64,000 bases of DNA from a virus (IMGVR_UViG_2907227753_000005), one strand, 5' to 3'; shown: positions 30,007-58,410, numbered from the stretch's first letter. Program-made: numbers and translations. The notes: generated by a model from the sequence alone, not told the origin.

Positions 30007-30045
30007 TTAACTTTCAATAGGTTCTTTCGTATAGAGAAGGTATAA
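30007..30045 (+). promoter_or_regulatory. TTAACT-N17-TATAGAGAAGGT promoter-like element, plus-oriented, antisense to the TerS-tdk-TerL operon
   Basis: Identical architecture to the 33772 and 58372 copies. It is followed at about 30066-30090 by the hairpin gccatcc-tgttaaag-ggatggc. Confidence 0.4.
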
Positions 30046-30080
30046 GCAAGCCGATACCCCTCCTAAGCGAAGCCATCCTG

Positions 30081-30626
30081 TTAAAGGGATGGCTCCTGCT
30101 TTGCAAAGCAAGTTCTACAAAGAGGTTCATACATATCATCACGAGCCACGAAGGTCGTACCGTCTCCCTTGTAGTAGTTAAGGGAAGCGAATTCCCCGCA
30201 CGAGCACCGCGTTCTCAGTTTGAAGCAGTTGTCGGCAATAGCCGCGATCATAGGCATTTGGAAGAACGGAACACCGTGTCTGTCCATATCCAATCCAGTA
30301 ACGAATACACTAATGCCGATCTCCCTCAGATTTTGAAGGGTCGGGATGAGAGTCGGGTCATCGAAGAACAGGGATGCTTCTTCAATCCCTACCATAGTGA
30401 GTCCTGGCTTCACATGAAGAAGAATCTCGCTTGCCTTCTCTACCCGAGTAACAGGATAGATGAGACCATCATGCGTCTTGATGATATTAGGCTCGTCCCT
30501 GTCGTCGGAGTAGGGCTTGAAGCATACAGCACTCTCCCCTGCTTCCTTCAAGTTAGCAATCAGATTGGTTGACTTGCCAGTGAACATCGTTCCCCAAAAG
30601 ACCGTAATCTCCCCGTGCTTAGTCAT
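30081..30626 (-). CDS. tdk: Thymidine kinase (TK1 family, 181 aa)
   Basis: P-loop FWGTMFTGKST and a C-terminal Zn ribbon (CSCG...CRTC) are typical of the bacterial/phage TK1 family. The gene is inserted between the TerS-like gene and TerL. Confidence 0.85.
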   Translation of the reverse strand: MTKHGEITVFWGTMFTGKSTNLIANLKEAGESAVCFKPYSDDRDEPNIIKTHDGLIYPVTRVEKASEILLHVKPGLTMVGIEEASLFFDDPTLIPTLQNLREIGISVFVTGLDMDRHGVPFFQMPMIAAIADNCFKLRTRCSCGEFASLNYYKGDGTTFVARDDMYEPLCRTCFAKQEPSL

Positions 30627-31227
30627 TCGCTTTCCCCCTCATCATGTCTGCGAACCACGTAGTCCCTTTTGCCATCTTCAGCTTCTCAGCGATAACAGGA
30701 ATCTTCTCGGGACATTCTTCTTTCAATGTAGATAGCACAATGTCCATGAACTTCCTGATGTTGTTGTAATCGTTGATTTCCTTTTGAATCTCGGTCATCT
30801 GCTTCAGGAACTCACGCATTTCAGAGATAACAGCCTTGTACTGGTAAGGGTTAACGAACTTACCTTTCTCGTAGGCATCCTCCTCCATTGCTTCCAGGAG
30901 CATCTTCGTCTTGTTGTATAGTGAAGTCACCTCGTGGATAATGTCCAAGTGATTGTTGACTACCTGAACCAATCTACGCTTGTCCTCTTTTACAATCTGC
31001 TTGCTGATCTCAGGCAACTTCTCGAAGAAACGCATGACCACGTACTTGTCGAGGAGATCACCGTCAGGAACCTTACCACTCGCGTTCATCTCATCAGCGA
31101 TTTGCTGATAGGACAGACCGCTCATACGGAGGTTCACCACGTCCTCCTCAAGTTTGTACTTGACGATCTTGCTCTGCTTCGAGGTAAGCGAGAGTTCTTC
31201 ATTTCTTTCCTCTGCCACTAACCTCAC
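30619..31227 (-). CDS. Terminase small subunit-like DNA-binding protein (202 aa)
   Basis: N-terminal HTH (LRMSGLSYQQIADEMN) with a helical C-terminal domain. It is upstream of TerL and overlaps the tdk start. Confidence 0.5.
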   Translation of the reverse strand: MRLVAEERNEELSLTSKQSKIVKYKLEEDVVNLRMSGLSYQQIADEMNASGKVPDGDLLDKYVVMRFFEKLPEISKQIVKEDKRRLVQVVNNHLDIIHEVTSLYNKTKMLLEAMEEDAYEKGKFVNPYQYKAVISEMREFLKQMTEIQKEINDYNNIRKFMDIVLSTLKEECPEKIPVIAEKLKMAKGTTWFADMMRGKAND

Positions 31228-31291
31228 CTCTTTCGTTTTCTTATCTTTAGGTTAGGCTGAACGCACCAAAACGCACCAAAGAAAAACCCCT

Positions 31292-31945
31292 CTACATGAG
31301 AGGGGTCGGTCTGTTTGGAAGCTCGTCTATGATTTTCGCAACCTGTTCGGCGCGTTCCTTAATCTCGAACTCATCAGCGGTGATGATGTGGATATGAGAG
31401 CAGTAGTTTCCGTGTTCGTAGATACGTTCGGGGGTAATGAGCACGACATCAGCAACAGCTTCCATCTTATGCTTACCCTTCTCGAACTTCTCGGGGTCGG
31501 TTAAGGAGTCGAACACTACAAGGTTAGGGTAAGCGGTCTCTACTGAGCTTGCCATACGGCTGTCGTTTACCCAGTAGACCACCCTTCCACCCTGCATCAG
31601 TGATCGGACATTAGTACCCGCCCGCGCCACCACGAAGTTTGGAAGTTCGGGGAACGGGTACTCTAGCTCATCAACCTGATAGAACTCCTCACTCGAATTG
31701 ATGTAGACCACGTTGTACCCAAGTTCCGCTAATTCCTTCAGGAGCCGCTGTGGTCGTCGCCCGAAGCTTTCGCTGTGGAAGTCGATGGCGGGCAGGTAGA
31801 CGATGGTCGTATTAACCTTCGGTGAGTAACGAGAGAAGTTGAACTCCTCCATATCGAACTCCAATACCTCAACTGGATCAACCTGCGGTTCAACCGCGTG
31901 GCTACCGAAAAGCCGTTTGAACAGTTTTCTCATCGACCTCTCCAC
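31292..31945 (-). CDS. Short glycosyltransferase-like protein (217 aa), paralog of the N-terminal half of the next gene
   Basis: IVYLPAIDFHSESFGRRPQRLLKELAELGYNVVYIN aligns with IVYPPALDWNLLFQRPQQLMTAFSKIPGVRAIFIN in the 369-aa GT. Confidence 0.45.
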   Translation of the reverse strand: MERSMRKLFKRLFGSHAVEPQVDPVEVLEFDMEEFNFSRYSPKVNTTIVYLPAIDFHSESFGRRPQRLLKELAELGYNVVYINSSEEFYQVDELEYPFPELPNFVVARAGTNVRSLMQGGRVVYWVNDSRMASSVETAYPNLVVFDSLTDPEKFEKGKHKMEAVADVVLITPERIYEHGNYCSHIHIITADEFEIKERAEQVAKIIDELPNRPTPLM

Positions 31946-33011
31946 CTCCCATCACTTTGTTTATCATCTTAACCGCATCCATCGCTCTACTGTCCCAGGA
32001 GTTAGCTTGAGCAACCGCTGTTCGTGCCGCGATCTTGGCGGGACTGTTCTCTTTAAGTGCCTTGTCAACCATCTTGCCGCAGTTAACCCTATCCATGAAG
32101 TAGGTAACGTCACTGTATTTGTTGACGATCTCCTCCATGCGGGTCGTTACAACTGGCTTGCCCGCTGACAAGTACTCGTAGTACTTGATCGGATCACAGC
32201 CGCGAATCATCTCAGTTAACTTGAACGGAACCATACAGACATCGAACTGAGCGATATATGCAGGAAGAACTTTGTAGTCCTTGTGCGGAAGACAAGTCAC
32301 GTTCGGATGCACTACGTTCTTTTGATACAGGGCATTGTTCCCGATCAGTACGACACGATGACCTTTATTGGCAATGTCAGTAATCAACCAGTAATCCACC
32401 CAGGATGCCATCGCCCCGTGGAAGCCCACCACCTTCTGACCCTCGTTTACCGCAGGGAAGTCGGGAGGTTTCGGAAGGGAGACCTGCGCTTTCTTGAAGT
32501 GTTCGTAGTCAGCTCCGTTAGGGCACATGAAGATCGGCTTGCCATCGTCCTTATGAGCTTCGTACATAACTTTCGCCGTGGTAGCTACGAGATCGGCTCG
32601 GGCGAAGCATTTTGGGATGTAGTTCTTCCAAATAGCAAATTCGTCAGCGGAGTTGTCCAGGTAATCGAATACAGTGAAGTCGAATCTGCGTCCGTCACGG
32701 TAGTTGTACTGACCTGGGTTGGAGAACCATAGAACCTTCTTCCCTTTGACAAGGTGGTCGTAGCTCACACCCTTGCGTACAAGGAATAGGTCTTCGTTGA
32801 TCTTTTCGATTGGACGGGACATCTTTTGATACGATTCTTCATTAATGAAGATCGCCCGCACACCTGGAATCTTTGAGAACGCAGTCATCAATTGCTGAGG
32901 ACGTTGGAATAACAGATTCCAGTCCAAGGCAGGTGGGTAAACAATCGTCATTTCAATGCTATCGAACACCGCGCTCTCCTCCTTCCTTCTATTAAGTAGC
33001 CACTTTAGCAA
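31902..33011 (-). CDS. Glycosyltransferase, GT-B fold (GT1/GT4-like, 369 aa)
   Basis: C-terminal ...YYEYLSAGKPVVTT resembles the GT4 E-x7-E / G-x-P-V-V donor-binding region. It overlaps its neighbours. Confidence 0.55.
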   Translation of the reverse strand: MLKWLLNRRKEESAVFDSIEMTIVYPPALDWNLLFQRPQQLMTAFSKIPGVRAIFINEESYQKMSRPIEKINEDLFLVRKGVSYDHLVKGKKVLWFSNPGQYNYRDGRRFDFTVFDYLDNSADEFAIWKNYIPKCFARADLVATTAKVMYEAHKDDGKPIFMCPNGADYEHFKKAQVSLPKPPDFPAVNEGQKVVGFHGAMASWVDYWLITDIANKGHRVVLIGNNALYQKNVVHPNVTCLPHKDYKVLPAYIAQFDVCMVPFKLTEMIRGCDPIKYYEYLSAGKPVVTTRMEEIVNKYSDVTYFMDRVNCGKMVDKALKENSPAKIAARTAVAQANSWDSRAMDAVKMINKVMGGGEVDEKTVQTAFR

Positions 33012-33735
33012 TCAACTCAGCCCCTTCCGCATAAGCGTGGATCGGGCGAAGCCGCGTATCTACGAATAATTTGTAACCTAGTCGGCGGGCTTGTTCGCAG
33101 AATGGCGCATCTTCCCCAATGGGATGCAGTCCGTATCTTACTCCTGCTTCTACAACCTCCCTCTTTATCAAGTACACCGCCCCTGTGAGATCAACAGGAA
33201 TGACTCCCTCCTGGAACTCAGGGACATGCCGCCCACCGATCATGGCATTATGCGCTTTGATTTTCGGGTGGTTTTGGATAAGCATGGAGCAGACATCCAA
33301 GTCGTTGTCGATCAACTGCTGAAGGCTTCCTTCAGGAATGATAATATCCGTATCAATGGATAGTAGATAGTCGCAGTCGGACTGCAAAAACTCGTGAAGC
33401 AGGATGTTCCTAAGTAAAGCTAGATTGCCGTATGAGTATTGACCGCGAACATGACCGTACTTCTTCCCTAGATTATGAGTAGCATACGGGATGCCTTGGT
33501 CGATAAGGATTTGTTCAGTCTCGTCATCGCTGTCATTCAGGATGTACATGAACTCTTTGTCCACATCCTGAGACATCAGCGAATCCAGATGCCGCCCCAG
33601 TATCCACGCTCTGTTTCTTACAGGAGCACCTATAAATACTTTCGCCATTGCCATTTCCCCCTTTTCCTCTTTATCTAGTTTAGACCGATAGACATTAGCC
33701 TTTTGCCGCGCCCGCCAAAAAAACACCAATTCCAT
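32992..33735 (-). CDS. Glycosyltransferase family 2-like (GT-A fold, 247 aa)
   Basis: N-terminal Rossmann-like VFIGAPVRN, Asp-rich DSDDE and SIDTD motifs, and its size fit GT2. Confidence 0.55.
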   Translation of the reverse strand: MELVFFWRARQKANVYRSKLDKEEKGEMAMAKVFIGAPVRNRAWILGRHLDSLMSQDVDKEFMYILNDSDDETEQILIDQGIPYATHNLGKKYGHVRGQYSYGNLALLRNILLHEFLQSDCDYLLSIDTDIIIPEGSLQQLIDNDLDVCSMLIQNHPKIKAHNAMIGGRHVPEFQEGVIPVDLTGAVYLIKREVVEAGVRYGLHPIGEDAPFCEQARRLGYKLFVDTRLRPIHAYAEGAELIAKVAT

Positions 33736-33771
33736 TTTATATAGGTAACACCGGCTTTTTTTGAAACGCCC

Positions 33772-33810
33772 TTAACTCTACAGGAATGACCTCGTATAGA
33801 GAAAGTGTGA
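33772..33810 (+). promoter_or_regulatory. TTAACT-N17-TATAGAGAAAGTG promoter driving the 33824-35965 plus-strand block
   Basis: -35 TTAACT at 33772-77, a 17-nt spacer, and -10 TATAGA at 33795-800, with conserved GAGAAAGTG downstream. Confidence 0.5.
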
Positions 33811-33823
33811 GGGGGATGAAACG

Positions 33824-34024
33824 ATGGACAGATTCAAGGCTCCCGATCACAGGGACGAGCCTTCTCCTATCGGAAAGACCTGCCCTTACTGCAAAGAGGA
33901 CATCCTCGAAGGCGACGAGATTGACGAACTGCATGACGGTGAACGTGTTCACTCGGACTGCACGGATGAATATCTCCGCGATCAGCATGTCCTCACTCGA
34001 CGCACCGCAGTGAGAGGGGAGTGA
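33824..34024 (+). CDS. Small Zn-finger protein (66 aa)
   Basis: CPYC...HSDC motif with a good RBS (GAGGGGGA) directly downstream of the TTAACT-N17-TATAGA promoter. Confidence 0.5.
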   Translation: MDRFKAPDHRDEPSPIGKTCPYCKEDILEGDEIDELHDGERVHSDCTDEYLRDQHVLTRRTAVRGE

Positions 34025-34186
34025 TTCTGATAGGGACATTAATTGCACTACTCGCAACAATCGTGTTCGTAGCCATTTTGTTATGGTTCTTGGCGGCTGT
34101 CGTCTTCGTTAAGGTGGCGAAATTCGCTTTGAAACTCGCAAGACCGTTCATTGACAACTTAAAAAAGAACAAGGGGGAATAACGGT

Positions 34187-35035: not shown

Positions 35036-35224
35036 TGGACGAGGGAGGAGAAATCCTCCCTTTTTCCTATTCTATTAAAGAAAGGAGTTGTTAACGATGT
35101 ACGATTGCCCTGATTGTATGAGCTTCCTAGTGGTTTGTCCTTGCTGTCAGCACTCATTCTGCCCTGACTGCGGAGCTTCTGAGGATGAGATTGAGGAGAA
35201 GAAAGAACAGGAAGGTGATGAGGA

Positions 35225-35965: not shown

Positions 35966-35971
35966 CCCATT

Positions 35972-36187: not shown

Positions 36188-36261
36188 TGGCAGGGGATGC
36201 AGGAATCGAACCTACGAATCGACATTCAAAGTGTCGTGTCTTGCCACTAAACGAATCCCCG
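36188..36261 (-). tRNA. tRNA-Gln (anticodon UUG)
   Basis: Folded by hand: anticodon arm CGACA-CUUUGAA-UGUCG, T-arm GUAGG-UUCGAUU-CCUGC, U8, encoded CCA. The acceptor has a C1/U72 mismatch. Confidence 0.6.
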
Positions 36262-36262
36262 A

Positions 36263-36336
36263 TGGAGCGAAATGAGGGAGTCGAACCCTCACCGTCTGCT
36301 TGGAAGGCAGAAGTTCTACCATTAAACTAATATCGC
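36263..36336 (-). tRNA. tRNA-Gly (UCC)
   Basis: Anticodon arm UCUGC-CUUCCAA-GCAGA, T-arm GAGGG-UUCGACU-CCCUC, encoded CCA. Confidence 0.65.
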
Positions 36337-36338
36337 AT

Positions 36339-36412
36339 TGGCACAGGCTGATGGAATCGAACCACCGTTAACGGGTTTGGAAGCCGTAGTTCTGCCACTG
36401 AACTAAACCTGC
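36339..36412 (-). tRNA. tRNA-Trp (CCA)
   Basis: Acceptor GCAGGUU/AGCCUGU. Anticodon loop UUCCAAA with a 31-39 mismatch. T-arm GGUGG-UUCGAUU-CCAUC. Confidence 0.5.
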
Positions 36413-36421
36413 ATATTAAGA

Positions 36422-36493
36422 TGGACTGAGATGGAATCGAACCACCGTCTGCGGGATTTCACTCCACCGCTAAGCCACTCAGCTACCAGTCCA
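36422..36493 (-). tRNA. tRNA-Phe (GAA)
   Basis: Perfect 7-bp acceptor UGGACUG/CAGUCCA. Anticodon loop GUGAAAU. T-arm GGUGG-UUCGAUU-CCAUC. CCA is not encoded. Confidence 0.5.
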
Positions 36494-36495
36494 TA

Positions 36496-36569
36496 TGGGG
36501 TGACGGACGGAATCGAACCGTGGACTCCTGATTCACAGTCAGGCATGTTACCACTACACTATCGTCACC
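36496..36569 (-). tRNA. tRNA-His (GUG)
   Basis: Acceptor GGUGACG/CGUCACC with discriminator C. Anticodon arm CCUGA-CUGUGAA-UCAGG. Confidence 0.55.
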
Positions 36570-36570
36570 A

Positions 36571-36647
36571 TGGTTGGAACAGATGGATTTGAACCATCAA
36601 CCTCCCGCTTATCAGACGGGTGCGCTAACCAGTTGCGCCATGTTCCA
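36571..36647 (-). tRNA. tRNA-Ile (GAU)
   Basis: Acceptor UGGAACA/UGUUCCA. D-arm GCGC-AACUGGUUA-GCGC. Anticodon arm CCCGU-CUGAUAA-GCGGG. T-arm GAUGG-UUCAAAU-CCAUC. ACCA end. Confidence 0.65.
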
Positions 36648-36648
36648 T

Positions 36649-36728
36649 TAGGCTCCTCCGTCAGGACTTGCACCTGAAACCGTCTTTGCGCGAGACAGCT
36701 CTACTAACTTGAGCATTACGTGAGGAAT
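36649..36728 (-). other. tRNA-like segment that does not fold into a canonical cloverleaf; possible pseudo-tRNA or other small RNA
   Basis: A T-arm-like UCAGG-UGCAAGU-CCUGA and a D-arm-like GCUC...GAGC are present, but no acceptor pairing could be found. Confidence 0.25.
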
Positions 36729-36730
36729 AT

Positions 36731-36805
36731 TGGCAGGGAAGCCAGGACTCGAACCTGGAACATCCGCATTAACAGTGCGGCGTTCTACCATTGAACTACA
36801 ACCCT
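36731..36805 (-). tRNA. tRNA-Asn (GUU) with two U-U mismatches in the acceptor stem
   Basis: U8, D-arm GUUC-AAUGGUA-GAAC, anticodon arm CCGCA-CUGUUAA-UGCGG, T-arm CCAGG-UUCGAGU-CCUGG, GCCA end. Acceptor AGGGUUG versus CUUCCCU. Confidence 0.45.
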
Positions 36806-36806
36806 A

Positions 36807-36905
36807 TAGGAAACCGTAGGTGGACTCGAACCACCGATAAAGCCACTCATTCTCGTCGTGAGCAGGAATCAAACCTGCGTAGCAGTACCCCGTAACGGTC
36901 ATATG
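36807..36905 (-). other. Degenerate tRNA-like region, possibly tRNA-Ser(UGA)-like with a truncated D-arm
   Basis: There are two T-arm-like hairpins (GCAGG-UUUGAUU-CCUGC and GGUGG-UUCGAGU-CCACC). A class-II-like fold with a 6/7 acceptor pairing is possible, but the D region is too short. Confidence 0.25.
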
Positions 36906-36907
36906 AA

Positions 36908-36981
36908 TAGGAGATGTTGGATTTGAACCAACGACCCTGTGCGTCCAAGGCACGTACTCTAACCATCTGAGCTAATCCCCT
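36908..36981 (-). tRNA. tRNA-Pro (UGG)
   Basis: Acceptor AGGGGAU/AUCUCCU with one G-U pair. D-arm GCUC-AGAUGGUUA-GAGU. Anticodon loop CUUGGAC. T-arm GUUGG-UUCAAAU-CCAAC. Confidence 0.6.
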
Positions 36982-36985
36982 GTAT

Positions 36986-37060
36986 TGGCGGCTCTAAGGG
37001 GAATCGAACCCCTCCCTCTCCGCTGACAACGGAATGTCCTAACCGATAAACGATAGAGCC
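36986..37060 (-). tRNA. tRNA-Asp (GUC)
   Basis: Acceptor GGCUCUA/UAGAGCC. Anticodon arm UUCCG-UUGUCAG-CGGAG. T-arm GGGG-UUCGAUU-CCCC. GCCA end. Confidence 0.65.
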
Positions 37061-37064
37061 AAGG

Positions 37065-37176
37065 CATCACCCTGTCGGACTCGAACCGACTCTGGCGGCT
37101 AGTTTCCCCTTAGGTACTCGTAGCCACAGTGCATCCCACACTGAGGGCTAATAGTGCTCCCAACCCGAAGGTCAGG
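37065..37176 (-). other. T-arm-containing tRNA-like remnant fused to a minus-oriented copy of the conserved GC-rich intergenic element
   Basis: GUCGG-UUCGAGU-CCGAC T-arm with no matching acceptor. It is followed, in minus sense, by ccttcgggttggg-agcactattagccctcagtgtggg, which matches the 42.8 kb element. Confidence 0.3.
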
Positions 37177-37186
37177 AGCGTATTTG

Positions 37187-37804
37187 TTACTTACCAGTCG
37201 CGGCTGTTTGAACAGTAACCTTGGAGTTACCTGCGGCAACGACAGCATTCGTAGCAATGGATTCAACACGGCTGTTAGCGGATTTTAGTTCTTCACGCAG
37301 TGTAGCGATCAGAGCTTCTTGGGATTCCACAGTTTCCTCAAGGGAAGTAATGCGGTTCTCAAGAACCCGTTTGTCAGCTTTATTCTCAGCATCCTGCAAG
37401 CGCAGTTCACCGTCGAACTCCTTCTTGGCTTCGGTTTTACCTTTGTTGAAGGCAACCGCTTCAGCTTTCGCCACAACCTCAGGAATCGCAGTAACCTTGG
37501 CTTGAAGTTCAGCAACCACGGACTCGGAATGATCGGCAGACTGCTCACGAGCTTCAACAGCTACTTCGCGGTCAGCGACTTCTTTAACACGATCTGCAAG
37601 TTCAGAATCCAGTGCGTCCTGACGATCACGCTTTTCCTTGTTGAACTGGTATGTATCTTCTTCCTTCTGACGAGCCAGTTCTTTCTTCCAAGCCGCCGCT
37701 TGTTCTGCTTTCTCCGCTTCAAACTCCTGACGAGCTTCCTCAATCACAAGTGCGTAAGCGTCCAGTACGTTCTGCTTCGTTTCAACCGTTGTTTTCTTCG
37801 CCAC
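37187..37804 (-). CDS. Coiled-coil protein (205 aa) embedded inside the tRNA array
   Basis: Highly charged, Ala/Glu/Lys-rich heptad-like sequence with tRNA genes on both sides. Confidence 0.5.
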   Translation of the reverse strand: MAKKTTVETKQNVLDAYALVIEEARQEFEAEKAEQAAAWKKELARQKEEDTYQFNKEKRDRQDALDSELADRVKEVADREVAVEAREQSADHSESVVAELQAKVTAIPEVVAKAEAVAFNKGKTEAKKEFDGELRLQDAENKADKRVLENRITSLEETVESQEALIATLREELKSANSRVESIATNAVVAAGNSKVTVQTAATGK

Positions 37805-37839
37805 GTTTTCGTTCCCCCTGGTAAGTGTTTTAGTTGTTT

Positions 37840-37913
37840 TGGTTTGGGTAGCGGGATTCGAACCCGCGTCTACTGGTTATGAGCCAGTCAAGGAACCGCT
37901 CCTCTATACCCAG
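37840..37913 (-). tRNA. tRNA-Met (CAU); the C1/A72 mismatch is initiator-like
   Basis: Anticodon arm ACUGG-CUCAUAA-CCAGU. T-arm GCGGG-UUCGAAU-CCCGC. ACCA end. Acceptor CUGGGUA/UACCCAA with 1-72 unpaired. Confidence 0.55.
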
Positions 37914-37916
37914 TCA

Positions 37917-38174
37917 TTAATAGACAATCGCTTCGATACCATCACTCGTAGTGACAAGCTTCAGGCGACCCTTGAACTGCAACGAACCCTGCGTATGAGG
38001 ATTGTCGGGAGTGTTCTTCGTCGTGAAAGGAACTTCAGAAGTGAGGTTCATCACGTAGTATGTCTCGCCTTTACACTTGATCGTCCATGGAGCAATGCCA
38101 GGATTACCGATGCTTTTCTTATTGAAATGAAAGACTACTCTCGTTGGTTTATCGCTGATAACTTCTTCGATCAT
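37917..38174 (-). CDS. Small hypothetical protein (about 85 aa from the internal Met; the ORF track extends it to 38249, where it would overlap tRNA-Cys)
   Basis: The ORF lies between tRNA-Met and tRNA-Cys. The start was moved to MIEEV to avoid the tRNA overlap. Confidence 0.3.
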   Translation of the reverse strand: MIEEVISDKPTRVVFHFNKKSIGNPGIAPWTIKCKGETYYVMNLTSEVPFTTKNTPDNPHTQGSLQFKGRLKLVTTSDGIEAIVY

Positions 38175-38202
38175 AGCTCTCACCTCTCTAAGGATTGTTT
38201 TA

Positions 38203-38276
38203 AGCGGAAGGATGGATTCGAACCACCGATCTTTGGGTTTGCGACCCAACGCCTTAAACCTCTTGGCTACTTCCGC
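38203..38276 (-). tRNA. tRNA-Cys (GCA)
   Basis: Perfect acceptor GCGGAAG/CUUCCGC with discriminator U. D-arm UAGCCAAG..GGC as in Bacillus tRNA-Cys. Anticodon loop UCGCAAA is atypical at position 33. Confidence 0.5.
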
Positions 38277-38277
38277 A

Positions 38278-38352
38278 TGGTAGCGTGTACGGGAATCGAA
38301 CCCGTGATCTCCGATAGAAAGTCGGATGTCTTAGCCGCTTGACCAACACGCC
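38278..38352 (-). tRNA. tRNA-Glu (UUC)
   Basis: Acceptor GGCGUGU/ACACGCU. Anticodon arm UCCGA-CUUUCUA-UCGGA. T-arm ACGGG-UUCGAUU-CCCGU. ACCA end. Confidence 0.6.
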
Positions 38353-38353
38353 A

Positions 38354-38437
38354 TGGTGGATGAGGTAGGAGTCGAACCTACACAGCAGTTAAGCCACGGG
38401 TTTACAGCCCGCTATTCTCGCCAGTGATTGGTGCCCA
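38354..38437 (-). tRNA. tRNA-Tyr (GUA), class II with a long variable arm
   Basis: Acceptor GGAUGGG/CUCAUCC. Anticodon arm GCGGG-CUGUAAA-CCCGU. T-arm GUAGG-UUCGACU-CCUAC. ACCA end. About 84 nt. The D-arm is atypical. Confidence 0.45.
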
Positions 38438-38566
38438 TCCAAGTGGTTGTTCCTCTATGAAACATAGATTAGTGCAGTTAACTTAGGAAATAACACTCCA
38501 ACACGAAAAACCTGAGAAAAACTTCCTCAAGTTGAGTTTCTTCTATATAAGGGAGCAAAAAATTAA

Positions 38567-38607
38567 GCTCTTACTTCCTCTATACGAAATGACTTACAAG
38601 ATGTTAA
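38567..38607 (-). promoter_or_regulatory. Promoter of the tRNA operon: TTAACA-N17-TATAGAGGAAGTAAG, minus orientation, same family as the 30.0, 33.8 and 58.4 kb elements
   Basis: The reverse complement of 38567-38607 gives TTAACA, a 17-nt spacer, TATAGA and GAGGAAGT. It points leftward into tRNA-Tyr, Glu, Cys and onward. Confidence 0.5.
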
Positions 38608-38963: not shown

Positions 38964-39752
38964 ATGAAGAAAATTGCACTGGTCATCACACTGGCATCAA
39001 CCCTTGTTTTCGGTTCCACTGCCGCGAACGTACAGGCATCGTCATTTAATGACGTAAGCGAGACAAAACACTCTTGGGCTGTTAAAGCCATCGACTTTAT
39101 GAGTGAGCAAGGAGTGATCAAGGGATACTCAGACGGAACGTTCAAACCCGACAATGGAGTGACTAAGGCAGAGTTCGTAAGTATGTTCTCCCGCCTTTTT
39201 GATAAGTACACTACCAACGACTCCACCACCCGCGAGTTCAAAGACGTTCCATCTACTAATTGGGCATATGAACCAGTATCTAAGATAATGTCGAACTATA
39301 CATACTTTACATACAGCAAAGACGGTAGCGGGATGAACTTCCATCCAAACACTAAATTGACTCGCCTGGGTGCCGCGAACTTGTTACCCGCACTATACGA
39401 AGAAATTGACGACGAAAAGGAAGTCTACAACATCCTACGAAGCATGAAAGACATCAAGGTTTATGAGAACGTTAACGGCTATGATCAAGATGGTAGGTTT
39501 GATGAATCAGTAGATCGCACTAACTCACAATTTCCAATCATCTTCAAAAACGGAGCACTAGATGACGACTATTCAGCTATCGTAGGAATAAAGATTGCAA
39601 GCCTTCAAAACGAAGGACTAATGACCGCTTATGAGGGTAATTTCAGCCCTAACAAGACACTCACTAGAGCTGAAGCCGCTACTACCCTATACCGCCTTTA
39701 TACTCAATTAAAGGGTGATGGCGATCTCTCGAATTACTCAAGTATTAAGTAG
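38964..39752 (+). CDS. Secreted protein with a signal peptide and three SLH domains, no catalytic domain (262 aa)
   Basis: MKKIALVITLASTLVFGSTAANVQA signal peptide. SLH1 FNDVSETKHSWAVKAIDFMSEQGVIKGYSDGTFKPDNGVTKAEFVSMFSRL. SLH2 FKDVPSTNWAYEPVSKIM.... SLH3 ...FSPNKTLTRAEAATTLYRLY. Confidence 0.7.
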   Translation: MKKIALVITLASTLVFGSTAANVQASSFNDVSETKHSWAVKAIDFMSEQGVIKGYSDGTFKPDNGVTKAEFVSMFSRLFDKYTTNDSTTREFKDVPSTNWAYEPVSKIMSNYTYFTYSKDGSGMNFHPNTKLTRLGAANLLPALYEEIDDEKEVYNILRSMKDIKVYENVNGYDQDGRFDESVDRTNSQFPIIFKNGALDDDYSAIVGIKIASLQNEGLMTAYEGNFSPNKTLTRAEAATTLYRLYTQLKGDGDLSNYSSIK

Positions 39753-41892: not shown

Positions 41893-41975
41893 TACCCATA
41901 CCCATGGCTAGGTATGCTCAGTCACTTAACTCTTATATATCTGTGTCGTATAGCTAAATTGAGTGACTGACCATG
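41893..41975. repeat. Long imperfect inverted repeat with about 23-bp arms (gctaggtatgctcagtcactt ... aattgagtgactgaccatgcctagc) around an AT-rich 30-bp centre
   Basis: Reverse-complementing the right arm gives gctaggcatggtcagtcactcaa, against the left arm gctaggtatgctcagtcacttaa. Confidence 0.55.
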
Positions 41976-48861: not shown

Positions 48862-48985
48862 ATAGATGCTGATAGAGAGACCCATCCTAGCATACCTGGA
48901 TGGGTCTTTCGCTTGAGCACCTATAGAGTGCTACTTAACATACCCTCCCCTATACCGTATAGAGAGGGTAAAGGAGATGACTTTA

Positions 48986-50010
48986 TGCAACACACAAAAG
49001 AAAGCATCAAGGAAATGATTATTGGAACTGGTATTCTTCAGGTTACCACCCGTGACGGTGAGGATTTTGCCATCGTGGACGGTTACCCTGATATTGACCG
49101 CTGTTTGTATATGATCGCTGAAGCACTGGCACCTGAATCCATTCAGGAATACCGTGACTTCCACGACCCAATCAACAATCACCAACTGATCCAAGGTGAC
49201 CGACTGGTGACATACGGTAGCCTAGCCTATGCAGGGTGCGCTGTACCTGAGGTTCTTGAGGTAGCCCTTGAGAAGGCAGGGATTGAGGACATATGGTTCG
49301 AGAATATCGTTATGGAATACGGGTTCTCAGATCAGTATTGCCTATGTGGGGGTTGTAGTAAACCCATCTGCCACTTCCCTTCTTCAGGCTCCCCCGACAC
49401 CCACTACCACAACAACGGCGAGGTGGTGTGCGTCGATTGCTTCAAGAGTAACGGTCTGAAGGATGAGTACCTAGAAACCTGCATCAACAACCCTCGGAAC
49501 GCAGTACAGTTCGGTCTTGTATCCTTTGATGAGCTGTACGCCGAGGGCTTTGAGAAGCATCACCAATCGCCCTACCACAATGGTCTCCATAAGGGTATGA
49601 ATGACGTACCTGAGGAGGTACTGAAGAAACTGAACGAAGAAGGTTTCGATGAGGTGCTGTTCACCTTGGACGAGAACACCTCATTCCACATGACCTTTAG
49701 TGCCTGGGTACGCCGAAAGGAAAGCATCGAAGGAAAGGCAGTGATCAGTCCAGAGCTTAGGGATGAGATTATAGAAACAGCAAGTAGAGAACTAATCCTC
49801 TACGATGTTTATGAGGGCGTTTTAAACGACAGCTTTATTCTGTATGGTGCTAAAAAGATTGCAATCGAAGGTATAAACCCCACTGAGTATATTGTACTGC
49901 ACAATAAGTACGTCAATGTATGGACAAGCGAAACAGAATTAATTGCAACGAACGATATTCAAATCGTTAACAGCTATAAAGAGCTGTTCGGAGAGGGTGA
50001 GGAACAATGA
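48986..50010 (+). CDS. Hypothetical Cys-rich protein (about 341 aa from MQHTKE; the ORF track starts at 48913)
   Basis: RBS aaaggaga. CxxC pairs (CLCGGC...CHF, CVDC). Confidence 0.5.
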
Positions 50011-51677: not shown

Positions 51678-51685
51678 TTTGTCCC

Positions 51686-52904: not shown

Positions 52905-52948
52905 CAAAGAAATTAACAAGCGGCTTAACTATCAGGAGGTTGTTTCGT

Positions 52949-53128
52949 ATGAATAAAGTAGGCGTTATGGATGCGATCATGGAGCAGTTCGGGGTTGAAT
53001 ACGGAGACATCTTTATGGATGATGACGGTACGTTCGAGCTGAACGACGATGAACAGCGTTATCGGTACATAGAGTTACCTGGGGAGACACAGAACGAGTT
53101 CCAATACGCGTTCCATAAGGTAGATTAG
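52949..53128 (+). CDS. Small acidic protein (about 60 aa from MNKVGV; the ORF track starts at 52901)
   Basis: RBS caggagg upstream of the internal ATG. Confidence 0.4.
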   Translation: MNKVGVMDAIMEQFGVEYGDIFMDDDGTFELNDDEQRYRYIELPGETQNEFQYAFHKVD

Positions 53129-53132
53129 GACA

Positions 53133-53200: not shown

Positions 53201-53240
53201 CCCATCCACGCCACAAAAACAATGGAGAGGAGTTTTAATC

Positions 53241-53780: not shown

Positions 53781-53851
53781 ATCAGTAACCACCAACCCCT
53801 CTCCTATCCGAGGGGTTTCTTGTGGTGTGAGATCAAGGGGGAGTTTTACGA

Positions 53852-54034
53852 ATGAAAAGCTCACGAAGACCTTCTAATGAACTAACCGACTTCGAGTTGT
53901 TGCAAGAGGTCGATCAGTTTATACTAGACGCTAAGGCATTAATTGGGAAGGGGGTGAGCGCGAGTGCGGATATTAAAGGCACTCAAGCGACTCGTAAGGT
54001 CGAACTCAAAAGAAAAGATTTGGAATCAGCATAG
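53852..54034 (+). CDS. Small hypothetical protein (60 aa)
   Basis: RBS agggggag. Confidence 0.35.
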   Translation: MKSSRRPSNELTDFELLQEVDQFILDAKALIGKGVSASADIKGTQATRKVELKRKDLESA

Positions 54035-54311
54035 GTGTCCTCATTGTAATCATCTGCTGTTCGAGAAAACAAATGATTTTGTGATTGGCTCAGTGAGGGT
54101 CAAGTGTCGGAAGTGTAAGAACATTGTGCATGAGTAGTTTTGACTCTTAGACTTTTGGGGGGAAGAAATAACGGAAATACTTAGAGAAGTCTTCTTGATA
54201 ATTTCCCCCACTTGTCTTATTATTGTGAGATAACTCCTCAGCTTACACATTCAGACCGCCGTTGGAGAGGAGCCAAATTTAGAGATCATTTAACAGTCGG
54301 AGGTTATTTTT

Positions 54312-54578
54312 ATGACGTATTCAAAAAGCCAAATGGACGCTATTGCTCAACACCTTAGAGATAGGTTTGTGGCAGGTGAAGTCGAGGGTCATGAGATCGT
54401 GGTAGCTCTAATAAGTATGGTTAAAGCTGATCGAATTTTATTAGATGATGTTGCACCTATTTTGTATACAGTATATTTTGGTAACCCACAAGGCGTTATG
54501 GTTGCTCTTGAAAAAGCTCACACTTTAATTGATGAAGAAATGATTGATTCAATAATAAAGGAAGTTAATGATAAATAA
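54312..54578 (+). CDS. Hypothetical protein (88 aa) inside a low-GC island
   Basis: RBS ggaggt. Markedly AT-rich codon usage. Confidence 0.45.
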   Translation: MTYSKSQMDAIAQHLRDRFVAGEVEGHEIVVALISMVKADRILLDDVAPILYTVYFGNPQGVMVALEKAHTLIDEEMIDSIIKEVNDK

Positions 54579-54665
54579 AAACCTACTAATATAACAATTA
54601 AAATAACATATTAATACTACTGTCTCTTTATTGAATTGAATTTCTACATAGAGAGAGGAGACAAA

Positions 54666-54866
54666 ATGAGAGAGTTTTACAGTAAGTTCTTCTTAGTCAG
54701 TCTAGCTTGTTTCCTTATTTTAGGTATCATAATTTTCTTTGATAATTCATTTATGCAAATGCTCCGCGTTATTTTCCACCTCTCCCTGGTTATCCTAGTA
54801 ATAGGAATTATCGGTTGGCACGAGAATAGGAGAAAGCGGAAGGAGCAAAATATATGGAAAACGTAA
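54666..54866 (+). CDS. Small two-TM membrane protein (about 66 aa from MREFYS)
   Basis: RBS gagaggag. Two hydrophobic helices. Confidence 0.4.
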   Translation: MREFYSKFFLVSLACFLILGIIIFFDNSFMQMLRVIFHLSLVILVIGIIGWHENRRKRKEQNIWKT

Positions 54867-55090
54867 ATAAGGCAGTTATGTTCTTGGCTGTAATTGAAAC
54901 AATGCTTGAAGCTTTGAAAGGTTTGCCTGTTGACCAAACTGAATTGGTCGATTCTTTAGCTATGTTAGGCTTTAACCCTACTGAAATCATGTATGAAACA
55001 CAGACGCTCGTGGCTTTTCAGAAAGTTTGTAGAGGTTTCGCTGAGATTGAACTTACTGAGGATGACTTATCAGCACTAGAGCAGGGGTAA
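54854..55090 (+). CDS. Small hypothetical protein (78 aa)
   Basis: Overlapping start. Confidence 0.4.
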   Translation: MENVNKAVMFLAVIETMLEALKGLPVDQTELVDSLAMLGFNPTEIMYETQTLVAFQKVCRGFAEIELTEDDLSALEQG

Positions 55091-55094
55091 CGTC

Positions 55095-55583
55095 ATGCAG
55101 TCATTGAAGCTTCTATCCACTTATGCACGAAACGGGGTAGTCATCCTTAGTAAGCTCAAATCGCGGAATTATCCACTCTACTTGTATCTGAAGTCCAATC
55201 TCGGGCAACTTACTCCCGCCCTAACCGCTCAAGGTGTGGGGGTACTCGATGACTTAAAAACACTTAAGGAGCCTGAAAAGATCAGGCTGTTTTTGCAATA
55301 TCACTATGGCGAGACCGTTGACCTTTCAGAAGTTAGGCAGATTCACAGGACGGTCTATAACTACCTCTTAGGATATGGAAAGCCCCGAGAGGTAGTCGAG
55401 GGTTTGGGCTTTAATGTAGAGTACCAATCCCATACCCCCAACTTAGAAAAAGACCTGGGTAATTTAAGAGATTCTGATGGGAACTTCCCTCCTCTCCCCC
55501 AGTCCACATACAATAAAGTCTATTACCGAGCTAAGAAGCAAGGTATTGACGTAAAACACTACCTCAAGTCTTTAGGGACTTGA
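55095..55583 (+). CDS. Hypothetical protein (162 aa)
   Basis: Clean ORF. Confidence 0.5.
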   Translation: MQSLKLLSTYARNGVVILSKLKSRNYPLYLYLKSNLGQLTPALTAQGVGVLDDLKTLKEPEKIRLFLQYHYGETVDLSEVRQIHRTVYNYLLGYGKPREVVEGLGFNVEYQSHTPNLEKDLGNLRDSDGNFPPLPQSTYNKVYYRAKKQGIDVKHYLKSLGT

Positions 55584-55648
55584 GGTTATTTTTTTAGGAG
55601 GTGGTTACTTAACAGCCTTACTCTCAAATCGTATAGATCAACTAGGAG

Positions 55649-57517
55649 GTGTTTGACGTGATTAACGCAGAAAAGATCAAAGGCAATGACGGGAAATGGT
55701 GGATTAAGGCTTCTTTTCGCAACGTCAAGACGCTTAGTGACGCGATGAGCGAGGTCAAAGGCGCGATCTATAGTCCTATTCAAAAGGTTTGGGCAGTTCC
55801 GCTGATCTACCGCGAAGATTTTGAGCAAAAGATGGGAAGCTTCCTGATCAACTGGACAGACGAGGAGAAAGGAAGCAACGGTGGTATCAGTGAGGACGAC
55901 ATTCCAAGTGAACCAGTTGTCCCTGGATACTCGGTTACCTACAATGCAGACGGTGACATTATCGACCACCGTGGATTCAAAACCCGCCCATGGGGAGAGT
56001 TCCAGGTCAAAGGATTTAACCTACTGGTCAGCAAAGACTTTCTGATCTTGGCTGATGACGCGGGTCTTGGTAAGTCTTGGCAGGTTGCTAACGCCATTGA
56101 AGCTAAGAAGAAGCTCGGGCATCTGAAACGGGGTATTGTCCTGGCGAAAGCGAGTCTGCTGTTTAACTGGCGTGACGAGATTCACATGCACACCAACCTA
56201 AAGTCGGTAGTAATGGCAGGTACCGTTAACCAACGTGCCAAGCTGTACAGCCAACTAACAAATGAGGAAGATTGGGATGTCCTCATTATGTCCTACGAGA
56301 CTTTCAGATGTGACATCCACAACCTTGAGCTTTTGGATAATTACAAAGAGCTTCAGTTCTGTGTTATGGATGAAGCCCACAAGATCAAGAACCCTTTAAG
56401 TAAGATCGGTTCCCTTGTGCATAGGTTGAACTTCCGTAGCCGTTATGTTCTGACAGCTACCCCACTCCCCAACTCACCGCTTGAAGCGTACAACTACCTT
56501 CACTTTGGTAAACGTGTACTGAAGAACTGGTATGAGTTCCGTGGCCACCATGCGATCATGGGAGGGTTCGGCGGCAAAGAGATCGTCGGCTACAAGAACA
56601 TTCCCGAGCTGAAGAACCTGATTCAGGTGAACATGCTCAGAAGACGCAAGAAGGACAAGCTGAAGGAGCTTCCTGAGGTTGCATTCAAGACAGTCAACCT
56701 CTCCATGACCCCTACTCAGTCCAAGATGTATCAGGCTGTTAAGATGGGGATTTTGGAGGAGCTGAAGGATACTTCCTTAGATAGGATTCCATCGGCACTT
56801 ACTAAGCTCCTTCGACTCCAACAGGTTACAGACTCCATCGAACTGATCGGAGCTTCCCCAGGGAAGAATACAAGCTCTAAGCTCCTAGCCCTTGACGAGA
56901 TGATCGAGGAACTGGTGGAAAGCGGTAATGAAAAAGTAATCATATTCTCCCGTTTCCGCACCGTGGTGGAGCTGATTGAGAAGCGATATGCAAAACATAA
57001 ACCTGCGGTCATCCATGGTGACGTTGATGCCAACGGTAAGACTGAAAACTCTGCTGTCCGACTGCTGAAGAAGAAGTACGGTCAGAAATGGTATGACATG
57101 CCTGAGGAGGAAAGACGTAAGCTCCTAGATGAAACTATGACTTCGGAACGTCAACGTGAAGTGTATAGATTCCAAAACGACGAAGATTGCAGAATCTTCA
57201 TTGGCTGTACACCTGCTTGCCGTGAAGGTCTTACACTCACTCAAGCAACTCACGTTATCTTCCTTGATTGTGAATGGTCACCTGCTTATGTTGAGCAAGC
57301 CTTCTCCCGCGCCCACCGTATCGGTCAGCGAAACGCCGTTACCGTCTATTACCTTGTATGTGAAGGTACTATTGATGAGCACGTACAGGAAACTCTGCAA
57401 CGTAAGGAAGCCATGGCACAGACCATGCTCGATGAGGGCATAGACAACCTCGATCTTGGAGTAGCGAAGCAACTGATTGCTTCCCTCGCAGGTATTGATG
57501 AAAGGATGGTGGCATGA
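55649..57517 (+). CDS. SNF2/Rad54-family DNA helicase/ATPase (622 aa)
   Basis: Motif I LADDAGLGKS, DEAH box VMDEAHKIKN, and C-terminal helicase motifs (GCTPACREGLTLTQATHVIFLD, QAFSRAHRIGQ). Confidence 0.8.
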   Translation: MFDVINAEKIKGNDGKWWIKASFRNVKTLSDAMSEVKGAIYSPIQKVWAVPLIYREDFEQKMGSFLINWTDEEKGSNGGISEDDIPSEPVVPGYSVTYNADGDIIDHRGFKTRPWGEFQVKGFNLLVSKDFLILADDAGLGKSWQVANAIEAKKKLGHLKRGIVLAKASLLFNWRDEIHMHTNLKSVVMAGTVNQRAKLYSQLTNEEDWDVLIMSYETFRCDIHNLELLDNYKELQFCVMDEAHKIKNPLSKIGSLVHRLNFRSRYVLTATPLPNSPLEAYNYLHFGKRVLKNWYEFRGHHAIMGGFGGKEIVGYKNIPELKNLIQVNMLRRRKKDKLKELPEVAFKTVNLSMTPTQSKMYQAVKMGILEELKDTSLDRIPSALTKLLRLQQVTDSIELIGASPGKNTSSKLLALDEMIEELVESGNEKVIIFSRFRTVVELIEKRYAKHKPAVIHGDVDANGKTENSAVRLLKKKYGQKWYDMPEEERRKLLDETMTSERQREVYRFQNDEDCRIFIGCTPACREGLTLTQATHVIFLDCEWSPAYVEQAFSRAHRIGQRNAVTVYYLVCEGTIDEHVQETLQRKEAMAQTMLDEGIDNLDLGVAKQLIASLAGIDERMVA

Positions 57518-57759
57518 AAGAACTAGAGATATTGCTTCTAAAGATGTGGGAAGATTTCGGTATTGAGTATATCTATAAATACAAGAACCGAATAAAAGTA
57601 TACAGAAGGGAAGGCTTAGTTAGCTATGAGCTGTTCTGTGACCTAACCTGCGGTACTATGTTTACTGACGTGGAGGATACAGCAAACGGCGATGATCTGT
57701 ACGCCGAGGACTGCAAGGTAAGCGTCAAAGTATTAATAGAAAGAAGATATGTATCATAA
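57514..57759 (+). CDS. Small hypothetical protein (81 aa)
   Basis: Coupled ATGA overlap. Confidence 0.45.
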   Translation: MKELEILLLKMWEDFGIEYIYKYKNRIKVYRREGLVSYELFCDLTCGTMFTDVEDTANGDDLYAEDCKVSVKVLIERRYVS

Positions 57760-58105
57760 TGTACAGTTCGACGCTAAAGTGAGCCACAATATCTGGCTAA
57801 AGAACCGTCCTCAAAAGGGCGGTTTCTTTATTTGGAGGACGCTAATGAAGAAGCATATCGAGGTGGTAAAGATTACACAGCAATTAGGTATAACAATATA
57901 CATGCAGGAGGGTGATCTAATGCCTAAGGCAGGGGAATTAGGATTCTGTCAGCGTTATGGATTTGGGGTGGTATCTGAAATTAGTGAATGTGGTTGGTGG
58001 TACTACTTCGAGGGTGGAGATGTAGCAGTAAATAAACCCTCAGTCAGAAAAGCCACTGAGTCTGAGATAAATACATGGAGGGATAAACAATGCCAAGACC
58101 TATAA
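57749..58105 (+). CDS. Hypothetical protein (118 aa)
   Basis: Overlaps its neighbours. Confidence 0.45.
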   Translation: MYHNVQFDAKVSHNIWLKNRPQKGGFFIWRTLMKKHIEVVKITQQLGITIYMQEGDLMPKAGELGFCQRYGFGVVSEISECGWWYYFEGGDVAVNKPSVRKATESEINTWRDKQCQDL

Positions 58106-58353
58106 GCAAAGTAATTCTACCTGACGTTCCTCCTATCCCTGAAGGGTATAAACGGAACTGGCTATGGTGCCGCAAGTGTGACGAGATTTCCTATTACGAT
58201 TATGTTCCATACGATACAGAAATGCCAAGCTTCCATACTACATGTGGTCACGACTTCTTCAGCGACCTAGAGTATCTGAAGGATTCTGAAGTGGAAGGCG
58301 GTCTTCCCGTCTCCCCTCCACCTGTAAAGAAGCGTTCTAAAAAGACTGCTTGA
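58090..58353 (+). CDS. Small Zn-finger-like protein (87 aa)
   Basis: CRKC...TCGH motif. Confidence 0.45.
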   Translation: MPRPISKVILPDVPPIPEGYKRNWLWCRKCDEISYYDYVPYDTEMPSFHTTCGHDFFSDLEYLKDSEVEGGLPVSPPPVKKRSKKTA

Positions 58354-58371
58354 ATTATTTTGATTCAGGTC

Positions 58372-58410
58372 TTAACTGCTCTCAATCGACTTCGTATAGA
58401 GAAAGTGAAG
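58372..58410 (+). promoter_or_regulatory. TTAACT-N17-TATAGAGAAAGTG promoter upstream of the 58425 gene
   Basis: Same spacing and the same downstream GAGAAAGTG as the 33772 copy. Confidence 0.5.

Follow-up and report, generated by a model that had tools for sequence, protein, structure and literature searches.

Phage-encoded sigma factors with promoters of their own are already well known, from SPO1 and from a proposal made for the Brevibacillus phage Jenst. Berg et al. (2016, PLoS One, PMC4909266) described a bipartite motif in Jenst and SecTim467 that occurs in 19-20 copies upstream of replication and nucleotide-metabolism genes and attributed it, without experiments, to a phage sigma factor; the Jenst motif has zero copies in the host genome. 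Here we analyze a repeated element, TTAACT-N17-TATAGAGAAAGT, in a stretch of viral DNA of 64,000 nucleotides (nt) (IMGVR_UViG_2907227753_000005; the whole stretch is called the window below), along with one copy of it that runs in reverse orientation between the genes tdk and terL. Rather than a free phage genome, the window is a portion of a ~120-kb prophage in Paenibacillus sp. FSL H7-0326, and the closest sequenced phages are Jenst and SecTim467, with TerL 52% identical. The repeated element is probably the promoter consensus of a sigma factor that the prophage itself encodes, judging from the sequence comparisons below, and the reverse copy belongs to a module of predicted regulatory features that is conserved in other lineages.

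The repeated motif and its predicted sigma factor

An earlier note on this DNA, made from the sequence alone, had listed four copies of the element. All four are in place, against 0.01 matches expected from dinucleotide shuffles: those at 33772-33806 (+) and 58372-58406 (+) fit TTAACT-N17-TATAGAGAAAGT exactly, while the copy at 30007-30041 (+) has one mismatch (GAGAAGGT) and that at 38573-38607 (-) has two (TTAACA and GAGGAAGT). The count of four proved too low, as there are 8 strong copies in the window and at least 16 in the prophage. Seven window copies match the conserved core TTAAC-N16-CGTATAG exactly (30007+, 33772+, 38607-, 41926+, 48935+, 55609+ and 58372+), and an eighth, at 3115(-), has CGTATAT instead of CGTATAG, the enrichment count giving 9 matches against 0.17 expected by chance. 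The eight strong copies fit cTTAACt-N14-TCGTATAGAGaAagT-R, and at least eight further copies are found elsewhere in the prophage. In a position weight matrix (PWM) scan of the window, the eight strong sites scored 33-40 bits and the site at 52925 reached 29 bits; from there down to 12 bits the scan was empty. When every pair of 5-mers with a gap between them was counted without bias, TTAAC-16-CGTAT came out at the top of the window.

The motif is present in relatives as well, a test that the earlier note had named. Pooling the prophage with its close relatives gave 34 non-redundant sites with the consensus c-TTAAC-t-N14-T-CGTATAGAG-a-A-a-g-T-R. When these sites are aligned at N16 spacing, no variation is seen in TTAAC, in CGTATA or at T14 (position 14 of the -10 block), and the spacer is variable; spacings of N15 or N17 occur rarely. 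The sites have the geometry of sigma-70-family promoters, with a -35 element TTAACT, a 17-nt spacer, a -10 element TATAGA after an invariant CG, and a purine 7 nt downstream after an invariant T. From this geometry and the invariant T14, transcription would be predicted to start at R15. Downstream of 40 of the 44 sites in the prophage and its relatives, a ribosome-binding site (RBS) and an open reading frame (ORF) of at least 40 codons lie within 250 nt on the same strand, at a distance of 10-190 nt from motif to RBS or gene (mostly 20-60 nt); the four exceptions are the 30007 copy and its ortholog, the copy at 38607, which faces a tRNA array, and the degenerate 52925. With its fixed bipartite geometry and this placement, the assignment of the motif as a promoter, which the earlier note had proposed, is well supported at the level of sequence. 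Among 2.9 million viral contigs scanned for a 15-base form of the motif, TTAAC-N15-TCGTATAGAG, one 113-kb relative had 12 matches, and nearly everywhere else matches were single. The predicted promoters in the window, other than the copy at 30007, are as follows.

33772..33806, plus strand: promoter copy, 25 nt upstream of a 66-amino-acid gene (33824-34024), heading a short plus-strand unit with SPFH and GT-D genes; orthologs at L013:8505 and L087:3763
38573..38607, minus strand: promoter copy, ~130 nt upstream of a 13-gene tRNA array (36188-38440, minus strand)
58372..58406, plus strand: promoter copy, 26 nt upstream of a 152-amino-acid gene (58425-58883); ortholog at L047:2920
55609..55643, plus strand: promoter copy, 22 nt upstream of a SNF2-family helicase gene (55658-57517), directly after a terminator (55561-86); ortholog at L047:6143
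48935..48969, plus strand: promoter copy, 23 nt upstream of a 341-amino-acid gene (48985-50010)
41926..41960, plus strand: promoter copy within a perfect 9-bp inverted repeat, followed by a ~165-nt leader and a small ORF
3081..3115, minus strand: promoter copy with the variant CGTATATAG, among the tail genes, 21 nt ahead of a 136-amino-acid gene (2657-3067)
52925..52959, plus strand: degenerate and doubtful copy (CGTATG), its -10 block overlapping the RBS and ATG of a gene; 29 bits
45105..45138, plus strand: N15 variant inside a coding region, probably not functional

The orientations proposed earlier agree with this list: plus-strand genes follow 25-26 nt downstream of 33772 and 58372, and the minus-oriented copy at 38607 points into the tRNA array.

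A reading of these sites as weak host sigma-A promoters (TTAACT-17-TATAGA), perhaps helped by an activator from the phage or by modification of the host polymerase, can draw on the canonical sigma-70-type geometry and on four of six matches in each hexamer. We regard it as very unlikely. At -7, where sigma A depends on T, all 34 sites have A. The invariant letters elsewhere (CG at -14/-13, G at -8 and -6, T at -1) are likewise foreign to sigma A, the sites are conserved much more strictly than sigma-A promoters usually are, and a dedicated sigma factor co-occurs with the motif. Scans for sigma-A consensus sites over 29-64 kb were at or below shuffle expectation. The poor fit to sigma A remarked on in the earlier note is thus borne out.

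Pfam scans of 30 window proteins found no sigma factor. Left of the window, tail genes extend over a further 22 kb up to an integrase and a replication initiator (locus L092, 100% identical to window positions 1-3364 over 3364 nt), and L092 in turn is 100% identical over 1691 nt to locus L071, which holds a gene run of DnaB, ligase, RtcB, ThyX, primase, a 187-amino-acid sigma factor, DNA polymerase and RecA. The sigma gene lies directly after the primase gene, ~29.6 kb to the left of window position 1. A relative with TerL 94% identical encodes a 191-amino-acid counterpart (L070:1286-1858) in a gene that overlaps the end of the primase gene. The gene downstream of the sigma gene encodes 202 amino acids in L071 and 200 in L070, with no Pfam match (for L071, from a precomputed result). 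These 187-191-amino-acid proteins have the Pfam domains Sigma70_r2 and r4 and no r3. They score 62.9-66.6 bits against TIGR02937 (the sigma70 superfamily model for extracytoplasmic function, or ECF, sigma factors; cutoff 42.9), while all specific NCBIfam ECF models are far below their cutoffs, which places the protein in no defined ECF group. The best matches among PDB sequences are SigH and FliA, at E of 3e-4 or worse. Homologs 75-83% identical are widespread in the Paenibacillus amylolyticus, xylanexedens and pabuli group; a search of 50,697 sequenced phage records gave no homolog at E below 1e-3 except one weak fragment.

The divergence of this sigma factor tracks that of the motif. Sigma relatives 76-100% identical accompany the same motif. 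The sigma factor of L085 is 46% identical, and the top dyad of its contig is TTAACT-N16-CGTATAAGTaCTaTG. In Jenst, the syntenic post-primase sigma factor is gp051, 25% identical in a direct pairwise BLASTP, and GCAACT-N16-CGACCATAAAGAGT ranks first among the dyads, occurring 13-15 times ahead of replication genes. This dyad is presumably the motif published for Jenst, consistent with Berg et al. (2016, PMC4909266), whose text prints no sequence. A tblastn search with three Jenst sigma proteins against all the DNA gathered gave no match at E of 0.01 or better.

A -35 element with AAC, combined with a -10 element that starts with CG(T) at a spacing of about 16 nt, is a hallmark of ECF-type sigma factors. 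The letters TTAAC-N16-CGTATA have both AAC in the -35 and CGT in the -10. Because of this spacing pattern and the co-variation of sigma factor and motif, we infer that the motif is read by the 187-amino-acid two-domain, ECF-like sigma factor. Copies of the motif also stand upstream of the primase-sigma operon itself (L071:8672 and L083:8676), which implies autoregulation. The earlier note had suggested either a modified host polymerase or a phage factor; the phage factor is retained, more exactly as a phage sigma factor encoded outside the window.

The main rival to the two-domain protein is another phage sigma factor, such as a SigF/G-like group-3 protein (for example the 267-amino-acid protein of L073-type elements) or a homolog of Jenst gp111 or gp117. 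Relatives do carry several sigma genes, and more may exist in the replication-side arm of the prophage, which was read mostly through L071 only. We consider this unlikely, as the two-domain sigma factor occurs in every motif-bearing lineage with a divergence that follows that of the motif, the promoter pattern is the textbook ECF one, and a motif copy before the sigma factor's own operon fits ECF-type autoregulation. A host ECF sigma factor could also be imagined as the reader, with the phage tapping a host stress response. The consensus of SigW-type envelope-stress sigma factors is TGAAAC-N16-CGTATA, and the motif resembles it in AAC-N16-CGTATA. Against this stand the occurrence of the same motif together with the phage sigma factor in prophages of two genera, Paenibacillus and Brevibacillus, the zero copies in ~14 kb of flanking host DNA, the phage-specific invariant extension GAGnAnnT, and the absence of the Jenst motif from the genome of the Jenst host (Berg et al. 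2016, PMC4909266). We rate a host ECF reader as extremely improbable.

Three observations weigh against the assignment to the two-domain sigma factor of the prophage. The sigma gene is outside the window, and L071 derives from a different sample than the window, so the linkage and the continuity of the prophage are judged from the 100%-identical overlaps between contigs. Relatives have additional sigma genes (Jenst encodes three, and L073-type elements the SigF/G-like 267-amino-acid protein), so the assignment of a reader depends on co-variation and ECF-like features. Finally, the main head and tail operon has no sense-oriented copy, so the motif does not account for late transcription.

As to how the sigma factor might be switched on, each 20-kb sigma locus contains a single full LexA (Cheo) box, CGAAC-N4-GTTCG, always upstream of the sigma gene or of the primase-sigma operon, in several lineages.

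L071:8766-8800 (~31 kb left of the window), L073:9745-9775, L084:9771, L086:108 and L083:8773: LexA box in a sigma-A-type promoter, TTGCGA-N17/18-TGnTATTCT

In L071 the box lies inside the spacer of TTGCGA-N17-TGgTATTCT, with a motif copy ~70 nt upstream of the box, and L073 has the same arrangement of promoter and LexA box. A LexA box in a sigma-A-type promoter with a motif copy upstream suggests SOS-dependent expression of the sigma factor followed by positive autoregulation, and the conservation of box and promoter across lineages suggests that the sigma factor is an SOS-triggered master switch. DNA damage would lead to loss of LexA and to sigma production, and the sigma factor would then fire all motif promoters, which serve replication, nucleotide metabolism, tRNAs and some tail genes. 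Just upstream of the sigma regulatory region, L071:8520-8615 and L073:9570-9660 share a ~90-nt conserved structured stretch (GACCAAGACCGACACA ... TGTGTTGGTCTTTTTTG) with a long hairpin and a T-run.

The reverse-oriented copy between tdk and terL

The copy at 30007 occupies an 88-nt gap between tdk (30081-30626, minus strand) and terL (28286-29992, minus strand) and is directed against both, as had been noted before. Its features are predicted as follows.

30007..30041, plus strand: antisense promoter copy, with -35 TTAAC (30007-11), -10 block CGTATAGAGAAGGT (30028-41) and predicted start A30042
30042..30101, plus strand: predicted ~60-nt cis-antisense RNA, with an anti-Shine-Dalgarno sequence CCCCUCCU (30057-64), a hairpin and an inferred 3' end
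30014..30064, minus strand: sense-strand leader, with Shine-Dalgarno sequence AGGAGGGG (30057-64) and mini-ORF TTG..TGA (30049-30014), peptide LIPSLYERTY

At 38.3 bits, this copy ranks third of the eight strong sites in the window by PWM, and its -35 overlaps the RBS region of terL (CCCTCCTT, 30001-08 on the plus strand). The hairpin has an inner stem at 30071-94 and an outer stem at 30065-30101; folding of 30038-30110 gives a minimum free energy of -22.8 kcal/mol, and the tdk stop codon (30081-83) is in its loop. The stable hairpin of the earlier note is real, and it starts ~30 nt after the motif rather than within 25 nt. The setting had been described as antisense within a packaging operon. 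Its antisense position before terL stands, while the exact site is the junction of a nucleotide-metabolism cassette with terL and overlaps a sense-strand mini-ORF that had gone unseen; this mini-ORF ends 5 nt before the terL RBS. No Rfam family matched 30042-30101. A plus-strand protein downstream of 30007 was considered and rejected: there is no RBS or start codon near the predicted start, and a 31-codon ORF at 30090 is only 11 codons long in L013.

The copy recurs at the same place and in the same orientation in four contigs that represent three further lineages (L013, L087, L089 and L090). In L013 and L087, TerL is 94-95% identical to that of the window; in L089 and L090 it is 77% identical, and the GC content is 39-40%. 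The L089 and L090 spacers are otherwise hardly alignable, yet all 11 core positions, T14 and R15 are intact in four lineages, where the chance expectation of an intact motif is ~3e-4 per spacer. A stable hairpin accompanies the copy in every lineage, 25-50 nt beyond the predicted start, with a sequence that differs from one lineage to the next. Directly behind the hairpin on the sense strand come a strong Shine-Dalgarno sequence and a mini-ORF of 11-20 codons, which ends 3-12 nt short of the terL RBS and has no canonical start codon in L013; equivalents of the Shine-Dalgarno sequence and mini-ORF are seen in L087, L089 (ATG, 20 codons) and L090, and by eye in L104. In L104 (TerL 73% identical), the -10 block, hairpin and leader ORF are kept and the -35 is degenerate. 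A metagenome scan for more tdk-terL spacers added this one partial case, most relatives having no spacer. In Jenst and most relatives with TerL at most 75% identical, the upstream gene abuts terL and there is no antisense copy, and the module is missing as a whole where tdk abuts terL. At the level of predicted features, these comparisons show that a full-consensus reverse promoter, a hairpin and a sense-strand leader ORF make up a conserved tdk-terL module.

The module points to a small antisense RNA with control over the onset of DNA packaging. The 30007 promoter would fire from A30042 while the phage sigma factor is active, and the resulting ~60-nt RNA would pair with the first codons of the mini-ORF, its Shine-Dalgarno sequence and the hairpin. 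Expression of terL from transcripts that read through from tdk could then be reduced by base-pairing, by convergent transcription, or by both: base-pairing could block translation of the leader ORF or create a double-stranded cleavage site, and convergent transcription could interfere with read-through. The earlier note had offered either a short antisense RNA or a roadblock at 30007, an idea that is strengthened by the conserved copy and hairpin in diverged lineages.

Several findings count against an antisense function. The peptides encoded by the mini-ORFs show no conservation, and in L013 a canonical start codon is missing. The hairpin in the window was not called as a terminator, has only a weak U-tract and is not convincing as a terminator. 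A strong U-tract on the antisense strand is found only in L089, that of the window being weak and that of L090 lying on the sense strand; with the strand and strength of the U-tract differing by lineage, the length of the antisense RNA and the role of the hairpin are uncertain. The copy might instead be a functionless relic, left for example by insertion of a tdk cassette, or act only as an obstacle at the DNA level, where bound polymerase or convergent transcription would stop read-through into terL and the RNA would have no role. Either would agree with the confinement of the tdk-terL spacer to one sub-lineage, with the window hairpin being a poor terminator, and with the lack of an evident target besides the overlapping sense RNA. 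Conservation makes a functionless relic unlikely, given the 11 core positions, T14 and R15 that persist through diverged spacers and 77% TerL identity, and an obstacle would need the same active promoter, only the effector being different. Taken together, a relic or obstacle is possible, if doubtful.

A more specific form of the antisense reading, which we put forward as a tentative and rather improbable proposal, treats the tdk-terL module as a sigma-timed packaging switch, in which the antisense RNA masks the start of the Tyr-rich leader mini-ORF and delays terminase to the end of the middle phase. The SOS-induced sigma factor would make an RNA that masks the Shine-Dalgarno sequence and start codon of the mini-ORF; translation of the mini-ORF would be needed to load ribosomes onto terL, and terminase synthesis would be delayed until the middle phase is over. 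A further possibility is that the Tyr-rich leader senses the phage tRNA-Tyr, the first gene of the sigma-driven tRNA array. If true, the packaging switch and the LexA-gated master sigma factor would form a previously undescribed control circuit for large Paenibacillaceae prophages.

The leader mini-ORFs of the window, L087, L089 and L090 are rich in Tyr codons (12 of ~55; LIPSLYERTY, TCSLLSLYERTY, MLFSWGKYWASYTLYVLYPR and GSYYIYTSHKY); TATAC in the promoter on the opposite strand accounts for some of these codons. The phage tRNA array likewise opens with a Tyr-like tRNA. This thirteenth tRNA, at 38357-38440 (minus strand), was missed by ARAGORN and scores 31 bits with the Rfam tRNA model (gathering score 29); inspection by eye shows the anticodon GUA, a long variable arm and an encoded CCA. 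Farther upstream of tdk, window 31292-33735 (minus strand) holds three genes, two of them glycosyltransferase-like, that are absent from the 94-95% relatives L013 and L087 and are closed off by a bidirectional terminator (31285-31307). They look like a cassette inserted between the divergent promoter region and the 202-amino-acid, tdk and terL genes.

Prophage context and neighboring features

The window is contained in a 1.1-Mb chromosomal contig (GCA_001955535.1, MPVN01000002.1). To its right are an endolysin and a holin, followed by the host genes DUF2953, scpB, scpA and the rib operon. The 113-kb relative with 12 motif matches, an IMG/VR prophage from Brevibacillus laterosporus, has a TerL 94% identical. 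A megablast search with 12 kb of sequence against phage records gave zero matches, and a TerL search of species-representative genomes gave zero relatives.

Loci of the L073 type, adjacent to dacB, were considered as the left flank of the prophage and rejected; the true flank is L092 joined to L071, from the integrase and replication initiator onward. The L073-type elements are related to the prophage and lack its replication block. In chromosomes of the Paenibacillus amylolyticus group (L073-L082), tail genes are followed by MpsC, the LexA box, a 188-amino-acid sigma factor, an SLT domain protein, the SigF/G-like 267-amino-acid sigma factor and host dacB, with no integrase or replication block seen within the 20-kb loci read. 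The exact L073-type sigma sequence was found on >40 contigs. Such an element may be a reduced or domesticated derivative.

Some copies of the motif are embedded in other signals. The 9-bp inverted repeat around the 41926 copy (41918-41926, TCAGTCACT; 41962-41970, AGTGACTGA) begins immediately ahead of the -35 and ends shortly past the predicted start, and could be an operator or a 5' stem. Outside the window there are combined terminator-promoter units, at L092:9941-9980 (left of the window, upstream of a 1559-amino-acid tail-fiber gene), L071:12440-12480, L073:10630-10670 and L084:10650-10690. Here a GC-rich hairpin (for example GCACCC-TTAACT-GGGTGC) carries the -35 TTAACT as its loop, and the T-run behind it doubles as the promoter spacer; with the -35 in its loop, one hairpin ends the upstream unit and sits inside the next promoter. 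For the head and tail operon, a copy in sense orientation was looked for at 33.7 and 31.25 kb; the only candidate, CTAAC-N15-CGAAAGAG at ~31.25 kb, was too poor to be accepted. The regions upstream of the minus-strand structural and metabolic operons (window 33650-33760 and 31228-31290, both minus strand) lack the motif and have in common a loose CTAA(A/C)C..AGATAA(A/G).

The tape-measure ORF (window 8759-17911, minus strand) has ~3050 codons and a PhageMin_Tail domain. Proteins with S-layer-homology domains are encoded at 8095-8745 (minus strand), beside the tape measure, and at 38964-39752 (plus strand), in keeping with a host surface that has an S-layer or a secondary cell-wall polymer. Window 60406-63169 (plus strand) holds a phosphoribosyl pyrophosphate (PRPP)-synthetase-like gene (60406-61233) and a NAMPT/NAPRTase-like gene (61673-63169) with a 147-amino-acid ORF between them, a pair that resembles the NAD+ reconstitution pathway with which phages counter NAD-depleting defense systems.

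Meaning and comparison with known systems

The analysis yields a testable regulatory map for large (110-125 kb), tRNA-rich temperate phages of Paenibacillus and Brevibacillus, whose parts are a predicted LexA-gated phage sigma factor, a sharply defined promoter and a conserved antisense module where nucleotide-metabolism genes meet the terminase gene. The defined promoter can be used to predict transcription units in any relative, and the pair of promoter and sigma factor could serve as an orthogonal expression part for Bacillales. If it works as proposed, the antisense module would be a rare RNA-level control of packaging onset.

With Jenst and SecTim467, the prophage shares membership of a related phage lineage, with TerL 52% identical and syntenic tRNA, tdk and terL genes, and, in the case of Jenst, the motif frame AACT-N16-CG with a downstream A-A-AGT. 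The letters differ, TTAAC/CGTATAGAG in the window against GCAAC/CGACCATAA in Jenst, and the sigma factors are only 25% identical; the prophage sigma factor would be one of new specificity. Jenst also lacks the tdk-terL spacer and the antisense copy. Like the ECF (group 4) sigma factors, such as SigW of Bacillus subtilis, the prophage sigma factor consists of domains 2 and 4 only, would read an AAC/CGT promoter at ~16 nt, and has a copy of the motif upstream of its own operon. Unlike them, it fits only the superfamily model and no specific ECF group, is phage-borne, and is apparently controlled by LexA instead of being freed from a membrane anti-sigma factor, no anti-sigma gene having been identified among the genes read. 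The long invariant extension of the motif (TATAGAGnAnnT) is likewise unusual for an ECF promoter.

The general plan, in which a sigma factor encoded by the element sends the host polymerase to phage-specific promoters, is that of SPO1 gp28 and gp33/34, PBSX Xpf and Clostridium perfringens UviA. In PBSX and in the UV-inducible UviA system, the switch is tied to DNA damage. The prophage differs from these in its sigma factor and promoter, and in having the LexA box directly in the sigma-A promoter of the sigma gene. For the antisense module, the nearest counterparts are P22 sar and lambda oop, small cis-antisense RNAs of temperate phages. As with these, a reverse promoter lies in an intercistronic gap and a short structured RNA is predicted that is complementary to the translation-initiation region of the opposing mRNA. 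Unlike sar and oop, the initiation region covered here is that of a mini-ORF upstream of terL and not of a regulator gene, the promoter would depend on a phage sigma factor, and the RNA is a predicted one.

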